Shown: one piece after another, positions 15,895 to 16,860 of the stretch | Numbering within the stretch: position 1 is the stretch's first letter | How the letters are laid out: the number at the start of each line of letters is the position of its first letter | Source of the DNA: a virus | IMG/VR virus record: IMGVR_UViG_3300016484_000799 | Coordinates: 1 to 38,257 of that record | Reading direction: 5' to 3' (one strand) | Length of the DNA: 38,257 nt | The notes under the pieces: generated by a model | The model's input: the letters and a program-made list of their open reading frames with translations, nothing else | The model's database searches: none | Told to the model about the DNA's origin: nothing | Position numbers and translations under genes: made by a program

Positions 15895-16860
15895 TTATGG
15901 TGTTCGCAGGCTTATAGCATCTTTCGCTAGCTTGTTGCCATATATACGCTCAATGACTTTATTTTTTGCTTTTGCGGATAAAATAGATCTGTGAACAATT
16001 TCTTTCAAAAGGAAAAACCTGTTGTCATCAATTTTGTATTCGGAAATAAAAACAGGACTAGCCTGCGAAGCTGCCCAGTCTAAAAATTTATCATGCGAAA
16101 ACTGTTGGCCATAGCCAACAGTACCTTTGTAAGGTATGTCGCAATAAATTATTGAGTTTGGTTTTATTTCAACTTGATCATAAGATAAGTTGGTAAAATA
16201 AACTCGTCGCTCGAGTTGCTGGAGTCGCTCGAGTTGCTGGAGTCGCTCGAGTTGCTCGAGTTGCTGGAGTCGCTCGAGTTGCTGGAGTTGCTGGAGTTGC
16301 TGGAGTCGCTCGAGTCGCTCGAGTTGCTGGAGTTGCTGGAGTTGCTGGAGTTCTACTCTTTGTCGGCACAATTGTTTTAAATATAAACGTCGTCCTTTAT
16401 AATCTAAATTCATTGGCCATTTATCAATATTAAAAGTGTCTTTCATAAAAGAATCAAACTCGTTAAATATAACAGCTTGATGCATGCTTCGCTTTTGTTG
16501 TTCAATACCTTTCCCGAATAAATAATTTTTTCCGTTATTTCCAAATGACCATATTATTTTTATATATGGATCTTTTTCTTTGTCAGAAAAAAATCTCTCT
16601 CTTGAAATCCATTCTGGTTTAAAAACTTTGTAATTATATTTACCATTTATTGCATCTTGAATTAAATTTGGAAGACCTGGACGTAATTCATTATAATAAA
16701 AATGCTTGAACGACTTTGATCTATTCTCAAGCATAAAATGAGTTACAGAAAATCCTCCTCCAAATAAATCATAAAAATTATCAGCGTCAGGAAATACCTC
16801 TGAAAGTTTGTGCGCTATTCTTGATTTACTCCCCTGATAAGGTATTCCAAATTTACTCAT
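15895..16860 (-). CDS. Dam-like (D12-class, alpha-type) N6-adenine DNA methyltransferase with an internal (LQQ/LER)16 repeat insertion
   Basis: Motifs seen are the N-terminal GIPYQGSKSRIA, motif I DLFGGGFSV and motif IV IIYCDIPYKGT (a DPPY variant). AGGAG lies 5 nt upstream of ATG 16860, and an alternative ATG sits at 16896. It is the only minus-strand gene between two plus-strand blocks. Confidence 0.8.
   Translation of the reverse strand: MSKFGIPYQGSKSRIAHKLSEVFPDADNFYDLFGGGFSVTHFMLENRSKSFKHFYYNELRPGLPNLIQDAINGKYNYKVFKPEWISRERFFSDKEKDPYIKIIWSFGNNGKNYLFGKGIEQQKRSMHQAVIFNEFDSFMKDTFNIDKWPMNLDYKGRRLYLKQLCRQRVELQQLQQLQQLERLERLQQLQQLQQLERLQQLEQLERLQQLERLQQLERRVYFTNLSYDQVEIKPNSIIYCDIPYKGTVGYGQQFSHDKFLDWAASQASPVFISEYKIDDNRFFLLKEIVHRSILSAKAKNKVIERIYGNKLAKDAISLRTP
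16207..16350 (-). repeat. 16 tandem 9-nt units inside the methyltransferase CDS
   Basis: Plus-strand units are ttgctggag, tcgctcgag and ttgctcgag. They encode LQQ x3, LER x2, LQQ x3, LER, LQQ, LEQ, LER, LQQ, LER, LQQ, LER. The array stays in frame for any copy number. Confidence 0.95.

Follow-up and report, generated by a model that had tools for sequence, protein, structure and literature searches.

Among the systems in which short repeats and DNA methylation meet is HsdS of EcoR124I/II, where a TAEL repeat forms part of the coiled-coil spacer that separates two recognition domains; a change in the number of copies is proven to alter the spacer of the bipartite target. Collagen-like G-X-Y repeats of phage tail-fibre and prophage genes combine a period-3 peptide with DNA repeats in 9-nt phase and vary in copy number, and orphan phage methyltransferases are a main route of restriction escape. 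In phase-variable Type III mod and Type I hsd genes, repeats shift the reading frame and so turn expression ON or OFF (PMC7383803). Here we describe an in-frame tandem repeat inside a DNA methyltransferase (MTase) gene of a phage, carried on IMG/VR record IMGVR_UViG_3300016484_000799 (positions 1 to 38,257; this whole stretch of 38,257 nt is called the window below). We hold with moderate confidence that the repeat is a hypervariable minisatellite that always stays in frame and encodes a period-3 Leu-x-x helical segment, made up of native last units and a tolerated, exposed arm. The gene and the repeat within it lie as follows.

15895..16896, minus strand: D12-class (alpha-group) N6-adenine DNA methyltransferase of 333 aa, identified from the open reading frame (ORF) list, PF02086, phrog_56, PADLOC and Foldseek
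16207..16350, minus strand: in-frame tandem repeat of 16 x 9 nt, aa 183-230, peptide LQQLQQLQQLERLERLQQLQQLQQLERLQQLEQLERLQQLERLQQLER

Only three coding-strand 9-mers make up the tract, CTCCAGCAA (LQQ) nine times, CTCGAGCGA (LER) six times and CTCGAGCAA (LEQ) once. Run on the whole window, Tandem Repeats Finder (TRF) gave a period of 9 at 16209..16352, with 16.0 copies, 87% matches and a score of 204, and an alternative period-45 reading of the same tract with 3.2 copies, a 93% match and a score of 246; the tract is by a wide margin the strongest repeat in the window, the runner-up scoring 91. At a lag of 9 nt, 118 of its 135 positions match themselves, to be compared with a maximum averaging 55 (sd 2.2, top 63) in 200 first-order Markov simulations of the window. 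The first-pass annotation of this DNA, made from the sequence alone, had reported 16 units of 9 nt at 16207-16350 built from three 9-mers, and this is exact when the tract is read in codon phase on the minus strand. The GC content of the tract is 59.7% as against 30.8% across the remainder of the MTase gene, and all 16 of its leucine codons are CTC, a codon used at none of the 20 leucines in the rest of the gene and at 6.4% of leucines elsewhere in the window. Every LER and LEQ unit contains the XhoI-type palindrome CTCGAG and every LQQ unit contains CTCCAG, which includes CCAG, a motif tentatively assigned to lactococcal relatives of the enzyme; these words depend on the codons used, and other lineages do not keep them.

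The number of units changes between close relatives. Two loci that are 99.9% identical over 3.7 kb (L037 and L044) have 19 and 27 units, respectively, and in a second pair (L001 and L002; 98.5% over 6.4 kb) the sole gap is one of 36 nt, which falls in the tract and corresponds to 13 and 9 units. Within clusters of at least 90% identity, the flanks are invariant and the tract units vary in number and order, from 5 to 11 units in the cluster of P0031, and some clusters at this level have a constant tract length. The same is seen in cultured phages. Dairy Skunavirus isolates of 87-97% identity differ by five in-frame indels, four of which fall in the tract, as do most substitutions, and the fifth of which is a single residue near the C-terminus; the enzymes of phi15 and phi145, which are 86% identical, have about 7 and about 19 units, with CTT-CAA-CAA-type codons in both. 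All length variants seen were multiples of 9 nt and in frame. It had been argued in the first-pass annotation that a 9-nt unit would keep gains and losses in frame, and a check for repeat-length heterogeneity in related genomes had been proposed; such heterogeneity was found, both in near-identical pairs and in isolates.

Because the variation is present in isolate genomes, a purely metagenomic artefact is ruled out. That the particular copy number of 16 was produced by short-read metagenome assembly, through a collapsed or expanded repeat, we consider very improbable. An array of 144 nt is near the length of a short read and protein look-ups returned no record of the exact window protein, but isolates have arrays of similar or greater length (about 19 units in phi145, from 454 reads at 233-fold coverage, PMC4190342, and 18 units in R24.1), the frame stays open throughout, and a higher-order period of 45 nt is present inside the array. 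Assembly error could put the exact number 16 at risk; it does not threaten the existence of the phenomenon.

Codon use within the arrays is far more uniform than the choice of codons between them. Over 96 loci, the majority leucine codon of the array was CTG in 22, TTG in 20, CTC in 17, CTA in 13, CTT in 12 and TTA in 12, and 88% of array leucines used the majority codon of their own array as compared with 23% in the remainder of the same gene. Where LQQ is the majority unit, it is encoded by 16 different synonymous 9-mers. The peptide follows a constant rule, with Leu at position 1 in 93% of units (L, I, V or M in 98%), Gln (54%) or Glu (35%) at position 2 and Gln (44%), Arg (29%) or Ser (16%) at position 3, such that Glu is found at position 2 and not 3, and Arg at position 3 and not 2. 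The residues that alternate are single-base neighbors (CAG/GAG, CAA/CGA and AGY/AGR), and the tract is charge-balanced, with a net charge of -0.06 per unit. Taken together, the uniform codons within an array, the differing codons between lineages and the constant peptide rule indicate evolution on two levels, in which amplification or slippage and homogenization at the DNA level proceed under purifying selection at the protein level.

These comparisons also bear on whether the repeat might be an element that acts as DNA or RNA, for example as iterons, as a series of target sites for the methylase or as a structured mRNA, and that lies in a coding region by coincidence. The CTCGAG and CTCCAG words of the window units, with the CCAG assignment in the lactococcal relatives, would suit such an element, as would the position of the gene next to the replication module. 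However, codon positions 1 and 2 are conserved between lineages and third positions are free, which leaves no conserved DNA word, and the energy of single-strand folding is unremarkable (z = -0.36, with 75 of 200 shuffles folding at least as well). On these two grounds a DNA- or RNA-level function was rejected, and we find it hardly credible.

The first-pass annotation knew of no equivalent in orphan phage Dam genes, but the tract is not peculiar to this one gene. L-[EQ]-[QR] units occur at the same place in all 120 of the closest homologues (47-68% identity, 286-360 aa), with copy numbers of 3-21 (median 8.5) that put the 16 units of the window in the upper tail, and LQQ (32%), LER (25%), LEQ (21%) and LQR (10%) together account for 88% of their units. 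Low-identity IMG/VR loci were found partly through a QQLQQLQQ pattern and are biased to tract-bearers, so prevalence was taken from two scans that are independent of the repeat. The first used the patterns [HN]FYDLFGG and WSFGN[ND]GxxY in bacterial and archaeal genome bins and gave 59 loci, at least 40 of which have the tract 15-27 aa ahead of motif IV; most loci in which it is not visible are truncated or N-masked at that position. The second took 146 cluster representatives of at most 50% mutual identity that contain motif IV, and in 126 of them 3 or more units occur no further than 35 aa from this motif, the maximum being 31. Clustered at 50% identity, the subfamily comprises 2,628 clusters when E<=1e-3 is allowed and 577 at E<=1e-30.

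The hosts and lineages involved are diverse. The tract is present on contigs of metagenome-assembled genomes (MAGs) from many phyla, in lactococcal Skunavirus phages, in the Lacticaseibacillus phages R24.1 (18 units) and Lc-Nu, in gp096 of Cylindrospermopsis virus CrV-01T and, in a degenerate form, in gp31 of SUP05 podophage Lau218. Gut and rumen MAG lineages (L075-L123) have LQS, LES and LER units, with AGY for Ser and AGR for Arg, in place of LQQ, LEQ and LER with CAR and CGR; in both sets of units, the non-Arg residue at position 3 is one base change from Arg. Short D12 enzymes (about 230 aa) of Klebsiella, Vibrio, Bacteroides, Acinetobacter and Cellulophaga phages correspond to the subfamily in the catalytic half only and have a short helix with no repeat at the position of the tract, and a few distant members of the subfamily have 0-3 units. 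Both observations fit the earlier suggestion that the tract is an expansion of a native element. The comparisons show that the tract is a hallmark, ancestral in origin, of the PYQGSK/WSFGN type, a large subfamily found mostly in association with phages. Three public records (L077, L106 and L118) are N-masked exactly across the Leu-x-x tract, and low-complexity filtering makes tblastn break the protein into two pieces there, so that the tract is systematically hidden from routine searches; caution is needed, as assemblers and masking pipelines can distort it. Full-text searches for descriptions of the peptide strings, or of tandem repeats in phage adenine methyltransferases, returned none in the searchable literature, and the repeat-bearing MTase tract is widespread but apparently undescribed.

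To place the tract within the enzyme, the following features of the gene are needed.

16825..16845, minus strand: N-terminal, motif X-like IPYQGSK, aa 18-24, aligning to IAYTGNK of T4 Dam
16744..16776, minus strand: S-adenosylmethionine (AdoMet)-binding motif I, FYDLFGGGFSV, aa 41-51, aligning to DLFCGGLSV of T4 Dam
16531..16551, minus strand: WSFGNNG motif of the target-recognition region, aa 116-122, a signature of the tract-bearing subfamily
16351..16401, minus strand: predicted basic helix, aa 166-182 (GRRLYLKQLCRQRVE...), the final helix before the tract (AlphaFold2)
16129..16206, minus strand: strand beta3 (RVYF), loop, strand beta4 and catalytic motif IV, with CDIPY (aa 252-256) at 16129..16143

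The window protein, which would be 321 aa long if translation began at 16860 instead, passes the Pfam gathering threshold for PF02086 (35.8 bits, cut-off 22, E 9.6e-9) and matches phrog_56 (E 4e-29) and the PADLOC Type II MTase model MTase_II (E 2.7e-44). Its motifs follow the D12 order, namely IPYQGSK (18-24), FGGG (45-48), YYNE (66-69), a recognition region (71-182) and CDIPY (252-256). In an alignment of 116 homologues, K24 is invariant and Y20, G22 and S23 near-invariant in the first motif; F41, D43, F45, G46, G47, G48 and F49 are invariant in motif I, as are W116, S117, F118 and G122 in WSFGNNG; and R170, L171 and L173 are near-invariant in the helix at 166-182. Motif IV reads D-I-P-Y, with D253, P255 and Y256 invariant, and distant members have DPPY; we read the DIPY of the window protein as a variant of the catalytic (D/N/S)-P-P-(Y/F/W) motif. 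The motifs that the first-pass annotation had named are present as LFGGGFSV (aa 44-51) and CDIPY. Judged by PF02086, motif order, catalytic motif and predicted fold, the protein is a D12 (alpha-group) N6-adenine MTase. Its earlier description as Dam-like stands in this broad D12 sense but goes no further, because the Dam family model TIGR00571 gives 29.4 bits, far under its cut-off of 114.85, and the relatives with methylome data have tentatively been assigned CCAG/CYAG rather than GATC. By this measure, the enzyme is not an orthologue of the GATC-specific Dam, and its target is probably other than GATC.

In a phmmer alignment, residues 227-271 of the window protein align to T4 Dam 145-190, spanning IIFSSLHF and FVYVDPPY, and in E. 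coli Dam (EcoDam) the DNA-binding domain comprises residues 57-144, the second part of the catalytic domain starting at 145 (PMC10073500). From this alignment and these domain limits, the tract is shown to lie where the chain leaves the DNA-recognition domain and re-enters the catalytic Rossmann domain, running directly into beta3, in agreement with its earlier placement just upstream of the strand that leads to motif IV. RVYFTNLSYDQV comes immediately after it. An AlphaFold2 model built on the 116 homologues had a predicted local distance difference test (pLDDT) score of 83 and a predicted template-modeling (pTM) score of 0.79, and its best Protein Data Bank (PDB) matches in Foldseek were EcoDam, T4Dam and DpnM (E 1e-6 to 1e-4, probability 1.00, TM 0.36-0.56). 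In this model, a helix at 166-182 is followed by a break (182-191), a 40-residue helix at 192-231 and strands at 232-235 and 248-252. The helical spacer that had been proposed for the repeat corresponds to the long helix (pLDDT 64-80), which might form a hairpin-like arm with the helix at 166-182. A classical coiled coil was rejected by reasoning, since a leucine at every third residue visits each heptad position once per 21 residues and places two of seven leucines in a core. Candidate contacts of the conserved leucines are self-association, the basic helix at 166-182 or the enzyme body.

Comparison of the arrays shows that units of the minisatellite are gained, lost and homogenized fast, in keeping with slipped-strand mispairing or unequal recombination between the 9-nt units, and this accounts for both the near-single codon set of each array and the differing copy numbers of near-identical phages. 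Purifying selection on the protein meanwhile keeps Leu at position 1, Glu or Gln at position 2 and Gln, Arg or Ser at position 3. The C-terminal 3-4 units are probably a native helix that packs on the Rossmann sheet, and further units may form a solvent-exposed helical arm whose length is weakly constrained; because such an arm would project from the body, the enzyme could keep working with anything from 3 to about 30 units. Length variation would then arise as a by-product, the element being unstable yet needed for the structure, and the length of the tract may still modulate how the recognition domain is seated against the catalytic domain.

Several observations weigh against this proposal. 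Exact flank searches of metagenome and viral contigs for near-identical relatives of the window phage gave nothing, or chance matches without similarity to the window, and as the collections searched hold no near-identical genome, the polymorphism is shown in relatives only. The confidence along the 192-231 helix is moderate (pLDDT 64-80), the N-terminal junction at 182-191 falls below 50, and in a homologue with 3 units (P0096), the segment that separates beta3 from the final helix of the recognition domain is predicted by AlphaFold2 as a coil, with low confidence. The geometry of the projecting arm is itself inferred from the model. Leucines spaced three residues apart do not line up into one hydrophobic face of an alpha-helix, which leaves the contacts of the leucines unexplained. 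Relative to shuffles of unit order, the tracts have an excess of E(i)->R(i+4) pairs (z = 5.7) and a deficit of R(i)->E(i+2) pairs, a pattern that fits a helix, but because these statistics are drawn from phylogenetically related and internally duplicated sequences it is weak evidence. Finally, a few distant members (L100, L110) lack the tract, which is thus not essential for the fold.

Some of these points would equally suit a neutral low-complexity insertion, that is, a microsatellite in a tolerant surface loop kept by mutational dynamics alone and with no role. The low AlphaFold2 confidence at the junction and the coil predicted when the tract is short are what such an insertion would be expected to give, and so are the very wide tolerance of length (3-31 units) and the 0-3 units of some distant members. 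On balance we judge it unlikely, given that the tract is kept in more than 80% of diverse clusters and in phages of unrelated hosts, that the consensus units of different lineages differ almost solely synonymously (six Leu codons, CAA/CAG, GAA/GAG, CGR or AGR), that the residue rules are strict at each position and that the charge is balanced.

The only members of the subfamily with methylome data are the lactococcal relatives. M.Phi15I, M.Phi93II and M.Phi145II of Skunavirus (936-type) phages belong to the same subfamily, with 39% identity to the window protein over aligned columns, and share with it PYQGSK, SFGN and the position of the tract, although their motif IV is DPPY where that of the window is DIPY. 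They are orphan phage MTases encoded beside replication genes, their tract length varies between isolates, and in some isolates the arrays are partly degenerate (L/V/I). Single-molecule real-time sequencing found CC(6mA)G on phi15 and CY(6mA)G on phi93 and phi145, motifs that the authors tentatively attributed to these three enzymes (PMC4190342). In the alignment figure of the same study (Murphy et al. 2014), 15 and 55 residues were cut from the two enzyme types without comment (PMC4190342); the 40-residue difference between the cuts is about the difference in tract length, so the region cut is probably the tract.

These data are the lead for a further explanation, in which the tract would be a contingency locus and slippage at the hinge would alter the specificity, stringency or activity of the orphan MTase, generating variants against host restriction systems by analogy with the repeat-length changes of Type I HsdS. 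The tract lies exactly at the domain junction, near-identical phages differ in its copy number, and it is the main difference between the enzyme of phi15 (about 7 units, CC(6mA)G) and those of phi93 and phi145 (about 19 units in phi145, CY(6mA)G). Against this, the motif assignments are tentative, that of M.Phi145II having been made by similarity and not validated by cloning (PMC4190342), and the phi15 and phi145 enzymes diverge at about 14% of other positions as well. The association of CCAG and CYAG with tract length is consequently a hypothesis and not evidence of a switch. Copy numbers are also broadly distributed, with no helical-phase periodicity evident in these small samples, where a rigid ruler should show one, and several clusters at 90% identity are invariant in length. 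We therefore regard a contingency locus as quite unlikely, and the narrower claim that slippage at the recognition/catalytic hinge changes the stringency or identity of the motif, as from CCAG in phi15 to CYAG in phi145, as more doubtful still. Were it true, some members of a phage population would at any time be methylated in a way that evades one or another host restriction system, and a specificity switch that is in frame and coded by length would be on record for the first time in a single-chain, Type II-like methyltransferase.

The Skunavirus methylase with the tract is encoded two genes upstream of SaV, which is annotated under that name at 2174..2482 in Lactococcus phage MLD12 (L065). 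SaV governs how sensitive a phage is to the AbiV abortive-infection system, and the methylase is thus located in an early-gene region linked to host-defense interplay.

The window itself is phage DNA, with Sak4-like, helicase and primase genes upstream of the MTase and tail fibre, portal, capsid and tape-measure genes downstream, all on the plus strand; the MTase is the sole large minus-strand gene between the replication and structural modules. In a 62%-identical relative (P0007, on L130/L131), the MTase is on the same strand as its neighbors and in another backbone (ERF, ParB_N, terminase and P22-type portal), and the gene thus moves between phage types. Between the convergent primase and MTase genes of the window is an AT-rich gap of about 300 nt (15599..15894) that is full of simple repeats, including (TA)n, (TC)n, A-runs and, at 15721..15752, (TCTA)x8 as called by TRF, and that may act as a terminator in both directions or have a part in replication. 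Elsewhere in the window, an ORF at 3944..4783 (279 aa) is a second in-frame simple-repeat gene of this phage, of extreme Gly content, in which runs such as GGGGGGAGGGG and GGGGGGGG are encoded by (GGC)n and GAGGCGGTG repeats (TRF rows 4146-4219 and 4583-4602). An ORF at 26015..27667 (550 aa, no PHROG match) has a 21-nt in-frame repeat at 27224..27272, with 2.3 copies and a 96% match, encoding KKENEEA/KKENEEV.

What the tract presents is a repeat that is unstable and yet selectively maintained, placed exactly at the joint of the DNA-reading and catalytic halves of an enzyme, in a large subfamily. If its length affects specificity, processivity or oligomerization, it would be a simple and widespread means of diversifying phage methylation. 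If its length has no effect, it would be a clean natural case of concerted evolution under selection on the peptide, and a practical variable-number tandem repeat (VNTR) marker for typing strains of dairy Skunavirus and of environmental phages.

Compared with the D12 enzymes of solved structure, the window protein has the same fold and order of motifs (X, I, recognition domain, beta3, IV) as T4 Dam, E. coli Dam and DpnM, which are its top Foldseek and PDB sequence matches and yet only 13-16% identical to it. The window tract ends near T4 Dam residue ~145, equivalent to the 144/145 domain boundary of EcoDam. The counterpart of the 3-31 Leu-x-x units of this subfamily is only a short helix in the solved D12 enzymes and in the short ones of phages, and the recognition region of the subfamily, with its WSFGN motif, differs from those of T4 Dam, EcoDam and DpnM.

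The first-pass annotation had looked for parallels in hsdS and mod repeats, and these are the nearest systems mechanistically, HsdS more closely and the phasevarions loosely, although the defining feature of each is absent here. As in HsdS, a short in-frame repeat in an MTase system encodes a helical unit (here a 9-nt unit and the predicted helix at 192-231) whose number changes by slippage or recombination. In HsdS, however, the repeat separates two target-recognition domains, whereas the window enzyme is a single chain with one recognition region and far more copies, its tract connects that region with the catalytic strands, and any effect of length is hypothetical. With the phasevarions it shares simple-sequence repeats inside MTase genes and copy numbers that are hypervariable between close relatives, including near-identical genomes (19 versus 27 and 13 versus 9 units), but there is no shift of frame or of promoter spacing to give ON/OFF expression, a frame shift being impossible with a unit of 9 nt. 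The collagen-like repeats differ in being built of Gly and Pro where the tract has Leu, Gln, Glu and Arg, in forming a triple helix where an alpha-helix is predicted here, and in belonging to another class of protein.

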